IMG/VR virus record: IMGVR_UViG_3300029288_005873
Coordinates: 160,001-224,000 of that record
Length of the DNA stretch: 64,000 bases
Direction: 5' to 3' (one strand)
Source: a virus
Taxonomy: Duplodnaviria > Caudoviricetes
Below, piece after piece: positions 11,669 to 63,117 of the stretch (the first letter of the stretch is position 1; the number at the start of each line of letters is the position of its first letter). The position numbers were made by a program, and so were the translations under genes. The notes under the pieces are model-generated. The model was not told the origin of the DNA. It worked only from the letters and a program-made list of their open reading frames with translations, and did no database searches.

Positions 11669-13047
11669 TTCCCCTCCAATTTGTCAAGCATCGAATCGAT
11701 GTTGTCATCATGGTTAATCTCACCCTCAACTAGCATTTTATCCAGCTTTTGGCGCAATTCGCCAACCTCTGGTCCTGGCTTGAGACCAAACCGAACGATG
11801 ATTGCGTTTCCAATTCCTGCTGGCAGTTTGGGTCTTAGGTCTTCTTCACGCATTTGACCAAGAGCCTCAACAAGCGCAGTATGTTGTGCTGCTACAAGAC
11901 CGCGCCTAGTCTCCTTTGCGGATGAACAGTCGGCGCCGAATAGGTCAATTAGATCTTCGATACGGCAATCACGCTCCTCGCATTCGCGAGCAAGGCGACG
12001 TAGAACACGCATACTCACTGTCCTGTTATCCTCCATTGCAGCTGACACACGCTGGTGTAGGAATACCAGACCTCGTATTGAACGCCGACGTTCATTAGAC
12101 ATCTTAAATCTTCGGGCAATTTCATTGGCGACCTCGGAACCAATCGAATCATGTCCAAGGAAATGGAGTTTGCCGTCTCGCACTCCCTCTGTTTGTGGCT
12201 TCGCGATATCGTGTAGGAGTGCAGCCCATCTGGCATTAGGTCGCGGTGGAATCCTATCCACAACCACTTTTGTATGATACCAAAGATCCTTATGTGCTTT
12301 AGTGCGCAGCTGGCTTACCTGCCATACAGCAAGCATCTCTGGGATCATCAACCACATAAGACCAGTTTTCGCAAGTAGTTCTATTCCATTCTGAACATGA
12401 TTGCCAACTAGTAGCTTATCCATCTCATCCAGCCATCTTTCTCGGCTAACAGATAGGATGTTATTCCTAAGCTCCACTATTGTATCACCCGTGTCCCTGT
12501 CAAGTTCAAATCCAAATTTGGACGCAAATCTGACAGCCCTTAGCATACGAAGAGGGTCTTCCGACAACCTGGCATGTGGATTACCAGTACAAGCAATACG
12601 CTTTGCTTTTAGATCTCCTTGACCGTCGAATGGATCGATTAGCTGTCCATCTGCCGACAATGCCATTGAATTGAATCTAAAGTCGCGCCTCTGCAGATCA
12701 GTGACAAGATCATCTGTGAATACCACATCAGGATGTCTGCCATCAGTAAGATCTCTGCGGAACGTAGTGATTTCTACCTGCTGCCCGTCAACTAACTTGG
12801 CTGCAATAGTTCCAAACTTCTCCCCAAGAGGCCAAACTACAGTGACCAAATCACTTACACTATTGAGTATTTCAGTTGTTTCCTGTGGTCTTGCGTTCGT
12901 TGTAAAATCAAAATCCTTGGGTTCTAGCCCCATAACCTGGTCACGAACACAGCCTCCTACTAGATATAGTTTACAACCATGTACGGCGAAAGCATCAGAA
13001 AGCCGTGTAAAAATCGACTCTTGCCATTTCATAGCTTCATTCTCCAT
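11665..13047 (-). CDS. cca: CCA-adding tRNA nucleotidyltransferase with HD domain
   Basis: YLVGGCVRD, DFDFTT, EITTFR, DLQRRDFRFN, EDPLRMLRAVRF, ALLHDIAKP. Confidence 0.9.
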   Translation of the reverse strand: MENEAMKWQESIFTRLSDAFAVHGCKLYLVGGCVRDQVMGLEPKDFDFTTNARPQETTEILNSVSDLVTVVWPLGEKFGTIAAKLVDGQQVEITTFRRDLTDGRHPDVVFTDDLVTDLQRRDFRFNSMALSADGQLIDPFDGQGDLKAKRIACTGNPHARLSEDPLRMLRAVRFASKFGFELDRDTGDTIVELRNNILSVSRERWLDEMDKLLVGNHVQNGIELLAKTGLMWLMIPEMLAVWQVSQLRTKAHKDLWYHTKVVVDRIPPRPNARWAALLHDIAKPQTEGVRDGKLHFLGHDSIGSEVANEIARRFKMSNERRRSIRGLVFLHQRVSAAMEDNRTVSMRVLRRLARECEERDCRIEDLIDLFGADCSSAKETRRGLVAAQHTALVEALGQMREEDLRPKLPAGIGNAIIVRFGLKPGPEVGELRQKLDKMLVEGEINHDDNIDSMLDKLEGK

Positions 13048-36713: not shown

Positions 36714-36786
36714 TGGACCAGCGACAGGATTCGAACCTGCGTCCCCAGTCGGTTGACCAGGATCCTAACCTCTAGACGACGCTGGA
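36714..36786 (-). ncRNA. tRNA-like RNA / pseudo-tRNA with aberrant anticodon loop
   Basis: CCAGCG/CGCTGG acceptor, Glu-like D arm, GCAGG-TTCGAAT-CCTGT T arm, ends CCA; anticodon loop is 6-nt CAACCG. Confidence 0.7.
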
Positions 36787-46980: not shown

Positions 46981-47286
46981 GCCTATCTCCTGTGTTTGCC
47001 AGGATTGGGATTTCCCCAAGGACGGATCCCTTCTCCTGGACTTTTTTACTACACTAAGGTCCGCCGTCATTCGAACCCAACACGGCAATCAATACGGAGA
47101 CACCCTTGTCTAGACCGTGTTCCAGATAAGGGTCGCCCGTCGCTGCGGACGGATCACATTCCATCATGGCAAAGGTTGTGCTCGAGAGCCTTGACTCAAT
47201 GCCTAGTTTGTCTCTCCATCACTGACCGACCTTGGGTATCAGTCGCAGCCAGCCAACACACCCCTGTTGGCTAGGATTAGAATTAG

Positions 47287-47605
47287 TGAGCCCAGCAGGA
47301 TTCGAACCTGCGACCAACTGGTTAACCTGCCACACTTGCTTTCACAAGCCAACTTTTCGGAGTTGTTGTGGTCTGGACCATATCTTCACCCTCAACATTA
47401 CTTGGTCGGGTGTTCTGCTCATGGCCTCTGAGGACTCCCAAAATATTCTGGGTTGCCTGCGGATTATCCAATCTTTAACATTTTTACTCATAGTGAGTAG
47501 TTAAAGCTCTAAGGACGTTCCCGCATATCGCAGAATTCATTTCATATATTACTATATGAACGCTCCAATCGAAGCCAGTTGCTCTGCCAACTGAGCTATG
47601 GGCCC
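47287..47605 (-). tRNA. tRNA-Lys(TTT) split by a group I intron
   Basis: Exon 1 47572-47605 ends ACTGGCTT; exon 2 47287-47325 starts TTAACCAGT; spliced loop CT-TTT-AA. Confidence 0.9.
47326..47571 (-). mobile_element. group I intron (246 nt, no ORF)
   Basis: P1 GCTT/GAGC with U.G; P ATATGCGGGAA, Q AATCCGCAG, R TCAGAGGCCA, S AAGATATGGTCC; terminal G. Confidence 0.9.
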
Positions 47606-52692: not shown

Positions 52693-54909
52693 TTAGGCTG
52701 GCTGCCGTTTCTTGATGGTCTTTACAGCTGAAATGACGAGATCGTCGCCACCCACACGAACGAATATCTTCCCGCCAGAGAATTCCTTTCCAGATAGGAC
52801 CATGGCAGCCACTGGTTGGGTTATTCGTTCCCTCACGAGGCGGTCCATTGGTCTTGCTCCGTATACTTCATCGTATCCGTGTTCTGCAAGCCACTCTCTT
52901 GCTTGATCAGACGCCTCGAGACTAAGCCCTCTATCAGCCAGTTGCGAATTCAGCTGGCTGATAAACTTGTCCGCAACCATCAGCATAATACTAGGAGACA
53001 GGCGATTGAACTTGACGATCCCGTCTAGCCTATTGCGGAACTCAGGAGAGAAGGCTCTCAGGTATGAATCACCTTTCGGCTCCTCCACTTTACCACCGAA
53101 TCCAGGCACTCGTCTTGACTTTTCTCCAGCGCCGACATTCGTCGTCATGAGGACGATCGCATGTCTGAAGTCAGCACGGAGACCCGACGCCCCAGTCATA
53201 GAACCATAGTCCATCACCTGAAGAAGCAGGTTGAACACGTCAGGGTGCGCCTTCTCGATCTCGTCGAATAGAACTACGGAATGTGGACTCTCACGCAGAG
53301 CGTTTACCAGAATGCCCTGCTGCTCGAACCCTACATATCCTGGAGGGGCTCCCACAAGTCGAGACACGGAATGCTGCTCCATGTACTCACTCATGTCGAT
53401 TCTTACAAGCCTCATCCCCAATGCGGAAGCGATCTGCTTCGCAAGCTCCGTTTTTCCCACTCCAGTGGGTCCATCAAGTAGGAATGAGCAGATTGGACGC
53501 TCTTTCGGAGAGAGCCCAACAGCAGATGCTAGAATGGCTGCGGACACCTTGTCTATGGCTTCATCCTGTCCGAAGATCTCCTTGCGCAATGTATCAGGAA
53601 GACTACGCACAGAATCGGACTTTGACAGCCTCCTGACCTGTACGTTCGCCATAGCGGATACCGTGTCCTCAATATCAGACTCACTCACGACATCCTTTTT
53701 TGCTAGCCTGACCTTTGCCCCAGCCTCGTCGATCACATCTACGGCACTTCCGGGCAGCTTTCTTTCGCGCATGTGCTGACCGGCAAGCTCGACCGCAACC
53801 TCTAGCGCTTTCTTATCGTACTTTATCCCATGATGCCATTCGTACTTTGTAGCCAAAGCCTCTAGTATTAGGACAGAAACCTCCGCCGAAGGCTCGACAA
53901 GGTTTACTGTCTGGAATCTACGCGCTAGAGCTGTATCTTTCTCTATGCGTTTACGGTACTCGTCATTCGTTGTGGTACCAATACAGCGTAATTCGCCTGA
54001 CGCAAGTGCAGGCTTCATGATGTTCGACATATCTAGCCCACCTTCAGATGTTCCTCCAGCACCCATGATAGTGTGGACCTCATCCATGAAAAGGATGATG
54101 TTTCTACCCTTAACCTCCTCCAGTATCTTCTTCATCCTTTCCTCGAACTCACCACGATATCTTGTGCCTGCGACAACAGACCCTATGTTCAGGCTGATGA
54201 CTTTTGTTCTCGATAGGAATTCTGGCACATTCCCAGACTCTATGCGGAGGGCAAGACCCTCAACTATCGCTGTCTTTCCCACGCCAGACTCCCCAATGAG
54301 AATGGGGTTATTTTTCCTGCGTCGAGCAAGGATATGTATGACTCTGTCCACCTCGGTGTCCCTGCCTACGAATGGATCGATCTTTCCGCGCCGCGCCAGT
54401 ACGTTGAGGTCTGTCGAAAATTCGGACAAGGCAGTGACCACTGGCGCAAAAATTGGATCAACCGCTGGTGGCGGCGATGGAGGCTCGGGCAGAGGAACCT
54501 CTTTCTTTTCCACAGCGGTTTGCGGACTGGTCTCCATCCCGAATTTGCTTGGGGAAATCCCAGACTTCTTCAAGATGAAGCCGAACTCGTAATCCATGGC
54601 AAGGGCAGTCATAAACTCCTTTATTCCAGCATCCCCACTGATGTCGACGGAGAGTGACATGCTCTTGATTTTGACGCTAAGAGTTGCGCGGACAGGACCT
54701 TTCGTCAGCACAGGTGATCTTTTGGAAATCCGCTCCTCGGTTACCTTTAGGATGGCATCGGTATCGCATCCATATCCAGCAAGGAATGCTTTGCCATCTT
54801 TGTTGCGCACCATTGCGCACAGGAGATTGTCGATGTTGGCTATTCTAAACCTTCTTTTGGCTGCATCCTTAATTGCGGCATCCAGGATGGTTTTCAGTTC
54901 GGACTTCAT
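52693..54909 (-). CDS. clpA: ClpA-like AAA+ unfoldase
   Basis: Two Walker A motifs (GESGVGKT, GPTGVGKT), RIDMSEYME, GAPPGYVG, YGARP; no ClpB coiled coil; PGF loop. Confidence 0.9.
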   Translation of the reverse strand: MKSELKTILDAAIKDAAKRRFRIANIDNLLCAMVRNKDGKAFLAGYGCDTDAILKVTEERISKRSPVLTKGPVRATLSVKIKSMSLSVDISGDAGIKEFMTALAMDYEFGFILKKSGISPSKFGMETSPQTAVEKKEVPLPEPPSPPPAVDPIFAPVVTALSEFSTDLNVLARRGKIDPFVGRDTEVDRVIHILARRRKNNPILIGESGVGKTAIVEGLALRIESGNVPEFLSRTKVISLNIGSVVAGTRYRGEFEERMKKILEEVKGRNIILFMDEVHTIMGAGGTSEGGLDMSNIMKPALASGELRCIGTTTNDEYRKRIEKDTALARRFQTVNLVEPSAEVSVLILEALATKYEWHHGIKYDKKALEVAVELAGQHMRERKLPGSAVDVIDEAGAKVRLAKKDVVSESDIEDTVSAMANVQVRRLSKSDSVRSLPDTLRKEIFGQDEAIDKVSAAILASAVGLSPKERPICSFLLDGPTGVGKTELAKQIASALGMRLVRIDMSEYMEQHSVSRLVGAPPGYVGFEQQGILVNALRESPHSVVLFDEIEKAHPDVFNLLLQVMDYGSMTGASGLRADFRHAIVLMTTNVGAGEKSRRVPGFGGKVEEPKGDSYLRAFSPEFRNRLDGIVKFNRLSPSIMLMVADKFISQLNSQLADRGLSLEASDQAREWLAEHGYDEVYGARPMDRLVRERITQPVAAMVLSGKEFSGGKIFVRVGGDDLVISAVKTIKKRQPA

Positions 54910-57737: not shown

Positions 57738-58080
57738 TGGTGGGCCTGTCCGGACTCGAACCGGAAACCCGCGGTTTATGCAAACTATCTACGTGTTTCC
57801 ACGCCGCTTTTCAGCGTTTGTAGTCTGGACTATCCCTTCCCTTTCGGGTCTGCCGTCTAGTCTCTACACCTTCAGGATTTCTCCCGCTTGGCTCGGGATT
57901 GGCATGAGAGTTTCCTCTTTTAGCTTTCCCCGACTTTGACAGAATTCACTAACACACTTGCCTCGGTTGCCCGCACATAATATGTTAGAGTCCCAAGTAG
58001 TGAATCATGCGCCAAAAAAGCGTTTAGATTTCAACTACTTAATCAAGACCGCCGCTCTAACCTAATTGAGCTACAGGCCC
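57738..58080 (-). tRNA. tRNA(CAT), probably Ile2, split by a group I intron
   Basis: Exon 1 58046-58080 ends GCGGTCT; exon 2 57738-57780 CATAAACCGC...CAGGCCCACCA; Ile-like acceptor; tilS adjacent. Confidence 0.85.
57781..58045 (-). mobile_element. group I intron (265 nt, no ORF)
   Basis: P AAAGTCGGGGAA, Q AATCCCGAGCC, R GTAGAGACTA, S AAGGGATAGTCC; terminal G; P1 GTCT/GGAC. Confidence 0.9.
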
Positions 58081-58198
58081 AATGTCGCCTTACATTCGCC
58101 TACTAAGCCAAAAACTGTTGGCTTGCATTCGACTACTAAGACGACCTATTCCTTTACAAAGGTCAAATCTCGAATTGTCTCGCCGAAAGCGTCTGGGC

Positions 58199-58882: not shown

Positions 58883-59261
58883 CTTTATCTCGTTTTGATG
58901 ATGTTATACCACTGTTACTATTCCCACTGACCAGTTGGTCTGGTATCATAATGATCGGCAAGTCTATGTAAACGAGTCGAGAGCCGATTGTCTTTATAGC
59001 CAAAAGACTTCTCGATTAGCCATAGACAAAATTCCTGCCAATGATCATAAATCCAACTCTTCATATTGTACCAGAACATTCTCTTCTCCCTTTGGTCTTC
59101 TGGATTGGGTACGAACCAACATTTCCGTTCGCGACACGGCGTCCTCGTTAGACGACCAGAAGGTATCAGTGTAAGTTTATTAGACGGTCAGACCACGGGT
59201 GATACTTTTCACATAGTCTATCTGCCATGTTACTTTCAGTATCACCCGTGGTCTGACTAGT

Positions 59262-59637
59262 TGGACGTGCCGGAAGTCGAATCCGGGTCCGCAACATCTT
59301 GATCGTGAAGTCATCCACATGCTTGGTTTCCATTTACTATTCCAGCAGGCGGGAAACGCGCCCATACTGAAAAGACCCATTGAGGCATTTTCGGTGGAAG
59401 TCTCAGGGTTTGAGTAGCTTCCTTAGTAGCCTCTCCCTACAATCCCTGTCCGATGACGCCGATCCCCAGAGTCACAGGGCCGGAGCCCGAGGTCAGCGGA
59501 TGCTAGGCAGCTGCCAGCATCTGGTTCGCGTTGTTGTTCGCGTTTGTTGTCTGTCCCAGTTTTTTCATGGCAGCCTGGAACACCTGCCAGCATGCACTCC
59601 AGTCTCTCAATACCACGTCGATACCAAATTCACGCCC
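59262..59637 (-). ncRNA. ssrA: tmRNA, tag ANNNANQMLAAA (59503-59541)
   Basis: 5' GGGCGTGAA..GG..TCGAC; 3' GACCCGGATTCGACTTCCGGCACGTCCA; G3.U70 and A73; tag ends LAAA-stop. Confidence 0.9.
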
Positions 59638-60059: not shown

Positions 60060-60238
60060 TTACTTCTCTCCCATAAAAGCGAGCACCAACCGAGGATTCT
60101 CGAGAATATAATCTCCACGGTTTCCCCCAGCAAGGGGCGAGCGATTTGTACCATGGACATTGCTGTGCCCAAGATTTTTGTCGCTCCAGATATTTGGTGC
60201 CCGCAAAACGCCTTCAGGGTCTCTCCCGTCGGGCATCG

Positions 60239-60320
60239 AGCCGCTAGAGGGATTCGAACCCCCGATCTCTTTTGGAGGACGGATTACAAGTCCGTTGCCA
60301 TACCTCTTGGCGATAGCGGC
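60239..60320 (-). tRNA. tRNA-Thr(TGT) with long variable arm
   Basis: GCCGCTA/TAGCGGC, ACGGA-CTTGTAA-TCCGT, extra arm CCTCCAAAAGAGATC. Confidence 0.75.
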
Positions 60321-62493: not shown

Positions 62494-62875
62494 TTACAGG
62501 AGATATTCCATTTCCTTTGCTACGGATTCCGCCAGGCTGGCATCCCATGGTTCGATAGGATCAGATATCCGACCGTCTCGCCGAAGGCGCCACCACCGCC
62601 CAATTTTCATTGCCTCATCTAAGGACAGAATAGAGACGGCATTTGCTACACCGAACTGGGTGGAGGTAATATCCACAACCATGTCATCGAGTAGTATGAA
62701 CCAATGACCTGGAACATGTCCAATGTCCACCTTGATTCCAGCTGCCCGAGCATGTTTGAAGATGAACGATGTCGCGTCTTTACACCACCCTCTAAGGTTG
62801 CTGGGATGGCTGCGTTTATTAGCTACACGTTCAGATTTTACATACCATGGACGTGAGCTTTTCGAGATCGGTCAT
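62494..62875 (-). pseudogene. papain/transglutaminase-like gene with a +1 frameshift
   Basis: MTDLEKLTSMVCKI-TGA, then +1 frame LRGWC...GHWF...VDIT..QFG. Confidence 0.5.
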
Positions 62876-62915
62876 AACTATCCCCTTGGAGAAATTGTTT
62901 CCGACCACATCGCAT

Positions 62916-63043
62916 TGGTTGGGTCGCCAGGACTCGAACCTGGATCTTTCAGGCTTATGTGCCTGCCCGAGTTCACGGGATTCCAGCTCTAGCTGGTTAT
63001 GTTGCCATAGGCAACCTACAAGTCGCCATTACACCACGACCCA
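62916..63043 (-). ncRNA. 128-nt tRNA-scaffold RNA with extra hairpins
   Basis: TGGGTCG/CGACCCA+A+CCA; T arm CCAGG-TTCGAGT-CCTGG; no 7-nt anticodon loop. Confidence 0.75.
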
Positions 63044-63044
63044 C

Positions 63045-63117
63045 TAGGGGCGGAGGGAATCGAACCCACGACCGACGGATTAGAAGTCCGTCGCTCTATC
63101 CGCTGAGCTACGCCCCT
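63045..63117 (-). tRNA. tRNA-Arg(TCT)
   Basis: AGGGGCG/CGCCCCT, ACGGA-CTTCTAA-TCCGT, A20; no CCA. Confidence 0.9.

Follow-up and report, generated by a model that had tools for sequence, protein, structure and literature searches.

A 128-nucleotide gene shaped like a tRNA lies directly behind a tRNA-Arg(UCU) gene in a 442-kb phage genome, and it raises the question of what such a gene could be for when three small hairpins stand in place of its anticodon arm. The element occupies positions 62916-63043, minus strand, of the window, by which we mean the whole 64,000-nucleotide stretch of DNA that was analysed (bases 160001-224000 of an IMG/VR virus record of 441,904 bp, complete by CheckV); coordinates are those of the window unless a genome or contig is named. 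The phage's own genome (G000) encodes 23 tRNAs, a tmRNA (the tmRNA proper, 59259-59637), tRNAs with group I introns and a CCA-adding enzyme (minus strand, window 12595-12969, genome 172595-172969; PolyA_pol domain, 105 bits; 462-aa open frame). A canonical tRNA-Gln(UUG), with U1-A72 and A73, is a separate gene at genome positions 77656-77728. Elsewhere in the window, a tRNA-shaped gene on the minus strand (36715-36786) scored barely above the Rfam tRNA cut-off (31.3 bits), and ARAGORN gave it a two-letter 'anticodon', suggestive of a 6-nucleotide anticodon loop. Long variable arms, which in bacteria are normally confined to Leu, Ser and Tyr tRNAs, were found in tRNA-Thr(UGU) (83 nucleotides, 60238-60320) and tRNA-Arg(CCG) (97 nucleotides, genome 233559-233655), both on the minus strand.

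Read along the minus strand, the tRNA-Arg(UCU) gene (63045-63117; Rfam RF00005, 71.3 bits, also called by ARAGORN) is canonical and has no encoded CCA. A single G (63044) separates its discriminator from U1 of the element, so that the element begins 1 nucleotide past the tRNA-Arg end given by Rfam (63045) and 0 nucleotides past that given by ARAGORN (63044), rather than 2 nucleotides past it as stated in the preliminary description. The 5' strand of the acceptor stem, positions 1-7 (63043-63037), pairs with 62926-62920 in seven of seven Watson-Crick pairs, U1-A72 among them, with pair probabilities of 0.81-1.0. After U8 and G9 comes the D stem, GUGU (63031-63034) paired with ACAU (62999-63002), which comprises 4 bp including one G.U and encloses a 28-nucleotide loop; by itself this stem is thermodynamically weak and of low pairing probability, and the D arm is the same as in phage tRNA-Gln. 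Within the loop lies an extra hairpin of 7 bp, two of them G.U, with the loop UGUA (63010-63027); its 3' strand has an alternative partner at 63001-63006. The 3' part of the D loop, UAUGGCA (63003-63009), holds a second copy of the GG and the equivalent of A21.

Three further hairpins follow. Hairpin A (62983-62996) has 5 bp, each with a pair probability of at least 0.99, and the loop UAGA, and is a near-perfect palindrome at the DNA level. Hairpin B (62966-62979) has 4 bp and the loop UGAACU, and hairpin C (62950-62965) has 5 bp and the 6-nucleotide loop ACAUAA, both being seen in the sequence and in the fold. Relative to the T arm, hairpin C occupies the place of an anticodon arm, and MAFFT aligned it with the anticodon arms of tRNA-Gln. 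A linker resembling a variable loop, AAAGAU (62944-62949), ends in a U that aligns with position 48 of tRNA-Gln and leads into a T arm of 5 bp with the loop UUCGAGU (62927-62943), identical to that of the tRNA-Gln of phage CcrBL9. [quoted passage not shown] Every helix named in the preliminary description, from the acceptor, T arm and D stem to the D-loop hairpin and the three hairpins behind it, is thus present on the minus strand, as are A73 and the CCA.

The fold of the element far exceeds chance expectation. Its minimum free energy (MFE) was -53.8 kcal/mol (z -3.87), a value equalled by none of 200 shuffled sequences. The 55-nucleotide core of three hairpins alone reached -21.4 kcal/mol (z -4.11, again 0 of 200 shuffles), with the MFE structure making up 93% of the ensemble. 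Against a background of 80,338 windows of 55 nucleotides from the genome, 0.6% were equally stable, and just 11 of those (0.014%) formed at least three hairpins. The D-loop hairpin by itself was marginal (z -1.98, with 10 of 200 shuffles as good).

Comparison with known genes revealed where the scaffold may have come from. The first 18 and last 31 nucleotides of the element align with phage tRNA-Gln(UUG) genes at almost every base, examples being those of Caulobacter phage CcrBL9 and Mycobacterium phage ScoobyDoobyDoo; the near-identical 5' segment covers the 5' strand of the acceptor, U8 and the start of the D stem and loop, and U1-A72 is in common. The core nucleotides U8, A14, GG, A21, the pyrimidine at position 48, G53, U54, U55, C56, A58 and C61 are all kept. 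Judged from this alignment, the scaffold clearly derives from a phage gene of the tRNA-Gln(UUG) type. The element differs from these genes in a 21-nucleotide insert in the D loop and in the three hairpins, about 49 nucleotides, that replace the anticodon arm. It also has A73 rather than G73, as does the phage's own tRNA-Gln, and, unlike a canonical tRNA-Gln, it fails the Rfam tRNA model.

The lower half of the element leaves no room for decoding. The loops of hairpins A, B and C are 4, 6 and 6 nucleotides long, none being of 7, and no enclosing anticodon stem could be drawn; with these lengths and no U33-type context, each hairpin loop was ruled out as an anticodon. Lacking an anticodon arm with a 7-nucleotide loop, the element cannot decode, which upholds the earlier view of a tRNA-shaped gene with hairpins in place of the anticodon arm. 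As a candidate canonical tRNA it has the acceptor, the discriminator and a T arm of 5 bp with a UUCRANY loop, while the 5-bp anticodon arm with a 7-nucleotide loop is absent and the RF00005 score falls short. An Rfam search of 62916-63043 at E ≤ 10 returned no match to any family, tRNA (RF00005, gathering threshold 29 bits) included; membership of a known Rfam family was one outcome that would have told against the preliminary description. ARAGORN at default settings left the element uncalled, and with introns allowed it gave a forced, poor and unconvincing solution, 'tRNA-Gly i(32,31)'. No tmRNA was called at 62916-63043, the real one lying at 59259-59637, and two further points made earlier, that the element has no tag ORF and is too short for a group I intron, were borne out.

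On balance, we lean towards reading the element as a non-decoding, tRNA-Gln-derived, tRNA-shaped RNA of about 128 nucleotides that would be released by RNase P and stable. Its surroundings fit a common transcript. The neighbouring genes are all on the minus strand, the small ORF upstream stops at the first base of tRNA-Arg(UCU), and the element is embedded among tandem copies of a small-protein gene family (the 127-aa 'DITSTQFG' family). No promoter-like or terminator-like sites were found flanking the element on the minus strand; given the unbroken row of genes on one strand, the element is probably part of a longer transcript and would be co-transcribed with the upstream ORFs and tRNA-Arg(UCU). 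Because tRNA-Arg has no CCA and a single G precedes U1, RNase P cleavage at U1 would serve both genes: it would create the 5' end of the element and leave tRNA-Arg with a 1-nucleotide trailer, which could then be trimmed and CCA added, the phage having its own CCA-adding enzyme. On the predicted structure, the features recognised by tRNA-processing enzymes are retained, namely a 7-bp acceptor on a 5-bp T stem, the T loop, U8, A14, the GG, A21, U48, A73 and the CCA. The product may persist as a stable tRNA mimic in which a tRNA chassis displays a small hairpin module to a protein or RNA partner.

Such an RNA may have an analogue in phage T4, in which species 1 RNA (rnaC) also lies downstream of tRNA-Arg(UCU). 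The T4 record lists, on the same strand, tRNA-Arg(UCU), a gap of 1 nucleotide, rnaD (species 2, 119 nucleotides), a gap of 6 nucleotides and rnaC (139 nucleotides); rnaC and rnaD are annotated merely as small stable RNAs with no function given, no Rfam family exists for either, and to our knowledge their job is still unexplained. The 3' 95 nucleotides of rnaC (contig L048, 1907-2001, minus strand) form an acceptor-like helix of 7 bp and a canonical T arm without an anticodon loop; a hairpin with a 6-nucleotide loop stands 5 nucleotides ahead of the T stem, and GAUAUGG is duplicated in the D region. R1, a single-sequence covariance model of the element (128 positions, 37 pairs), scored rnaC at 24.6 bits against at most 17.4 bits for true T4 tRNAs, nearly all of the score coming from the acceptor and T arm. 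The two T4 RNAs resemble the element in following a tRNA-Arg(UCU) gene on its own strand and in size (119-139 nucleotides). However, no sequence homology between rnaC and the element was detectable beyond the tRNA scaffold, rnaC has a 46-nucleotide 5' extension and no clear D stem, and rnaD lacks a T arm. We therefore propose an analogy between the element and rnaC, not homology.

Other RNAs bear on the comparison to different degrees. Engineered tRNA scaffolds for recombinant RNA use the tRNA shape to carry a foreign hairpin, and for the element they offer an analogy of mechanism rather than a family. Aptamer-tagged tRNAs, as described by Mukai (2020, PMC7590224), are a man-made tRNA chassis of this kind that carries a foreign hairpin and still decodes. 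The bacterial and phage YrlA RNAs (RF02553) are non-decoding mimics of the acceptor, T and D region of tRNA, and some are substrates of RNase P and CCA addition (Chen et al. 2014, PMC4201824). A 2023 survey of approximately 10,000 candidate viral RNAs treats tRNA-like structures in general terms only (PMC10690425), a review of non-canonical tRNAs makes no reference to phages (PMC7609411), and our literature search found no description of the element's architecture, including the D-loop design discussed below. The preliminary description had proposed a new tRNA-mimic non-coding RNA. The non-decoding tRNA shape stands, but a wholly new kind of RNA does not, given T4 rnaC, YrlA and the other tRNA-shaped phage RNAs.

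The main rival to a stable tRNA mimic is that the element is a decaying duplicate of a tRNA-Gln gene, in which hairpin insertions or inverted duplications wrecked the D loop and the anticodon arm. Its upper half would survive either because the event was recent or as an RNase P handle that frees the 3' end of tRNA-Arg(UCU), and the hairpins would be functionless. We regard this explanation as possible, though on the unlikely side. It gains from the canonical tRNA-Gln(UUG) gene present elsewhere in the genome (77656-77728) and from the 1-nucleotide spacer to tRNA-Arg, which makes the role of a processing handle plausible. It gains further from the isolation of the element. Megablast and blastn searches against 50,697 phage records returned only similarity of the T arm and acceptor to tRNA-Gln and other tRNAs. 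The covariance model suggested in the preliminary description could be built and recovered its own sequence, but it yielded no homologue: on the phage's own genome and seven related contigs, found via the terminase, R1 matched only itself. Whole collections were also scanned for orthologues, with negative results: viral contigs eight times, with six DNA patterns and two neighbour proteins in addition to the terminase, metagenome contigs twice and genome contigs twice. In particular, eight exact-pattern scans of the viral, metagenome and genome collections with stems or loops left free turned up no orthologue, and the four matches to the loop-only pattern were AT-rich, structureless chance matches. 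Loci with homologues of the neighbouring 127-aa protein held no tRNA-like gene, and no copies of the hairpins occurred as a repeat elsewhere in this genome or in that of a related phage (G001). The element is an orphan within the collections and contigs searched, a point that weighs for decay.

The region itself is in flux. Over the 40 kb around the element, the closest relative (83% terminase identity) shows no match at the DNA level and hardly any at the protein level, and the gene directly downstream of the element is frameshifted; it is from these two observations that we draw the conclusion, and both the hypervariable region and the frameshifted neighbour favour decay. The downstream gene (62494-62876, minus strand) is a paralogue of the tandem 127-aa family. 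Its ribosome-binding site, ATG and first eight or so codons are in one frame, while the conserved body, 50% identical to the neighbouring copy, lies in the +1 frame without a start codon. This arrangement reflects either a pseudogene that has suffered a frameshift or programmed +1 frameshifting. A possible tie between this +1 shift and an 8-nucleotide form of the hairpin C loop was considered and rejected, as no matching four-base codon was seen by eye in frame in the shift window.

The D-loop insert and hairpin A also carry marks that mutation could have left. A 5-nucleotide direct repeat, AUGGC (63025-63029 and 63004-63008), flanks the insert, and deleting 21 nucleotides from the D loop restored a textbook D arm; both observations count towards decay, as does the DNA palindrome of hairpin A. 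The palindrome could stem from a template-switch mutation, and the insert has the layout X-X'-X, in which the middle strand can pair with either neighbour; both could arise by mutation alone. The calculated energy was -51.1 kcal/mol for the fold compatible with a cloverleaf and -49.4 kcal/mol for the alternative, a gap of 1.7 kcal/mol. In the former, the D-loop hairpin sequesters the first GG, and the free GG and A21 come from the second copy.

Several features do not sit well with decay. All 16 scaffold pairs and all 21 pairs of the inserted material are intact, and the inserted material is neatly folded throughout, with 93% of the ensemble in the MFE structure. Both G.U pairs of the D-loop hairpin become A.C mismatches on the opposite strand; they work on the transcribed minus strand only, which points to pairing at the RNA level in the transcribed sense. 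The design of the D-loop hairpin also recurs, with different sequences, in two tRNA-shaped genes from unrelated viral contigs. The preliminary description had taken fully paired stems to argue against decay. That argument is weaker than claimed, in view of the orphan status, the palindrome of hairpin A and the frameshifted gene downstream.

The two recurrences came from a looser pattern that combined the start of the element's D arm with its T loop, 60-90 nucleotides apart, and did not require the hairpin. This pattern picked out 17 viral loci with over-long tRNA-shaped genes, among them L055 (2175-2282, minus strand; 41.7 bits with R1) and L059 (1489-1618, plus strand; 25.9 bits). In both, as in the element, a hairpin is inserted after AAUG and followed by a second GG-YA and then the 3' strand of the D stem; both have the element's D stem, a canonical T arm and no 7-nucleotide anticodon loop, and at 105-130 nucleotides they are in the element's size class. 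L055 also shares the X-X'-X layout and a 5-nucleotide direct repeat. When the three sequences were aligned, four of the seven pairs of the D-loop hairpin were changed on both sides and 95% of cells were paired, in an alignment that was fitted to our own model and from loci for which the finding pattern had fixed the D-arm sequence. The comparison is no more than suggestive of a D-loop hairpin design common to the element, L055 and L059. In contrast to the element, which adjoins tRNA-Arg, L055 and L059 are solitary between ORFs with no tRNA alongside. The lower halves of the three are wholly different: that of L055 is one bulged 8-bp helix, and the gene still passes the Rfam tRNA model at 42.7 bits, while that of L059 is a branched arm. 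Differing lower halves fit a shared chassis with variable cargo and, equally, independent events. It is doubtful that the three represent an undescribed phage class of 'tRNA-chassis' RNAs, with a D-loop hairpin, a switchable middle strand and a variable cargo where the anticodon arm would be. If such a class existed, a switch between tRNA-like and non-tRNA shapes could gate processing by tRNA enzymes or binding by host tRNA-binding proteins.

Over-long tRNA-shaped genes of other kinds were also found. In three contigs, tRNAs carry inserts of 18-50 nucleotides that separate the D arm from the anticodon arm (L066, 1130-1241, 1246-1373 and 1691-1809; L062, 4876-4967; L057, 5174-5288) and keep normal anticodon arms, those of Asp, Leu, Cys, Lys and Asp; the inserts of the three L066 tRNAs share a motif that ends in CUUAC, pointing to a single kind of inserted element. 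A second family, with giant variable arms, is present in two related phages (G000, 74520-74672, 80176-80299, 80437-80574 and 81263-81400; G001, 53583-53700, 53832-53961, 57872-57979, 57982-58117 and 58988-59126). Its members are 108-153 nucleotides long; most copies have an anticodon-type arm with a loop of 7-8 nucleotides, and all have a variable domain of 55-85 nucleotides with CUCGG and ACA(C/A)GC motifs. The insert-bearing tRNAs and this family indicate that expanded tRNA shapes are common among uncultured phages. The element was rejected as a member of the giant-variable-arm family: it has no anticodon-type arm, R1 found none of the members, and the resemblance is limited to the T arm of one G001 copy. 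Two more genes of G001 have composite forms. One (L031; 56024-56139) contains in its anticodon loop a nested mini-tRNA, made up of a 7-bp acceptor-like helix and a full T arm, and the other (L032; 66659-66749) is a 91-nucleotide tRNA-Ile(UAU) whose variable region is a second anticodon-like arm with the loop CUGAUAA (GAU).

A stable tRNA mimic might in addition be charged. Some aminoacyl-tRNA synthetases ignore the anticodon; LeuRS relies on A73 and the tertiary core. An enzyme of this type could load the element, which would then serve as a non-ribosomal aminoacyl donor, bind EF-Tu or act as a decoy for enzymes that work on CCA ends. The perfect acceptor stem, A73 and the encoded CCA, along with the A15-U48-type pair and the free GG, speak for charging. 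Nevertheless, we consider it unlikely, as an acceptor of the Gln type would need GlnRS or GluRS, both of which read the anticodon, and a search of the phage for GluRS and GlnRS found no class Ic synthetase. The other roles put forward in the preliminary description, such as a ribosome or synthetase ligand, are conjectural, and its decoy for defence nucleases fares no better where anticodon nucleases are concerned, the element having no anticodon loop for them.

It is very improbable that the element is the precursor of a working tRNA from which the inserts are excised like introns. Group I introns do interrupt tRNAs of this phage, and the insert-bearing tRNAs of other phage contigs show that additions of 18-50 nucleotides can accompany a normal anticodon arm. 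In the window, a tRNA gene with a CAU anticodon (57738-58080, minus strand) is interrupted by a 265-nucleotide insert that scored as a group I intron at 33.9 bits (E 6e-7 locally, below the Rfam threshold); it is the second intron-bearing tRNA, the other lying at 47286-47605. However, group I introns are of about 200 nucleotides or more, with a P1-P9 core, and sit in the anticodon loop, and the inserts of the element, at 21 and about 49 nucleotides, are far too short. Intron_gpI gave no match in the element, as against two in the other tRNAs of the window, and no Rfam ribozyme family matched it. Neither a splicing endonuclease (PF01974) nor an RtcB ligase (PF01139) was found in the phage genome. 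The phage tmRNA gene suggests a bacterial host, and the protein-spliced, bulge-helix-bulge intron pathway is presumably lacking in bacteria. Moreover, removing the D-loop insert leaves a remainder that still yields no anticodon stem with a 7-nucleotide loop.

YrlA RNAs are permuted: a closed stem-loop stands for the acceptor, and Ro60 binds the helix made by the 5' and 3' ends of the molecule (PMC4201824). They also have a GNCGAA motif and a Ro60 gene alongside. The element has neither of these last two features, and its own ends pair into an open acceptor stem that finishes in A-CCA. That the element is a YrlA-type partner of a phage Ro60-like protein, an idea prompted by the tRNA mimicry of these RNAs (PMC4201824), is close to refuted by this topology, with an open CCA end, no helix closing the ends and no GNCGAA, by an Rfam YrlA match of 13 bits against a threshold of 69 bits that falls at 63023-63077, mostly on tRNA-Arg, and by the absence of a TROVE domain (PF05731) from the 442-kb genome in a search positive on control genomes.

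Returning to the stable tRNA mimic, we count in its favour a structure beyond chance, the tRNA-Gln scaffold with its core bases, the strand-specific G.U pairs and the lack of an anticodon loop or RF00005 match, together with the tRNA-Arg 1 nucleotide away, the CCA-adding enzyme, the design seen in L055 and L059, the T4 rnaC analogy and the over-long tRNA-shaped genes of G000 and G001. Against it we count the orphan status, the unconserved region, the frameshifted neighbour, the mutation-prone hairpin A and insert, the weak D stem and the model-fitted alignment. Weighed together, these points tip us slightly towards the mimic.

Stable tRNA-shaped RNAs from the tRNA clusters of phages have been on record since T4, and we know of no explanation for them. 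The element is a clean example, tRNA-Gln-derived, apparently with all of its processing features kept, and visibly non-decoding. Standard tRNA finders and Rfam miss RNAs of this kind, and a recurring D-loop hairpin design would offer a handle for finding members and testing what they bind. If the element is merely a decaying duplicate, it would show that tight packing of tRNA genes can preserve the upper half of a dead neighbour as a processing signal. Should such RNAs be produced and retained, phages would be putting the tRNA shape to work outside translation, as a carrier or a mimic.
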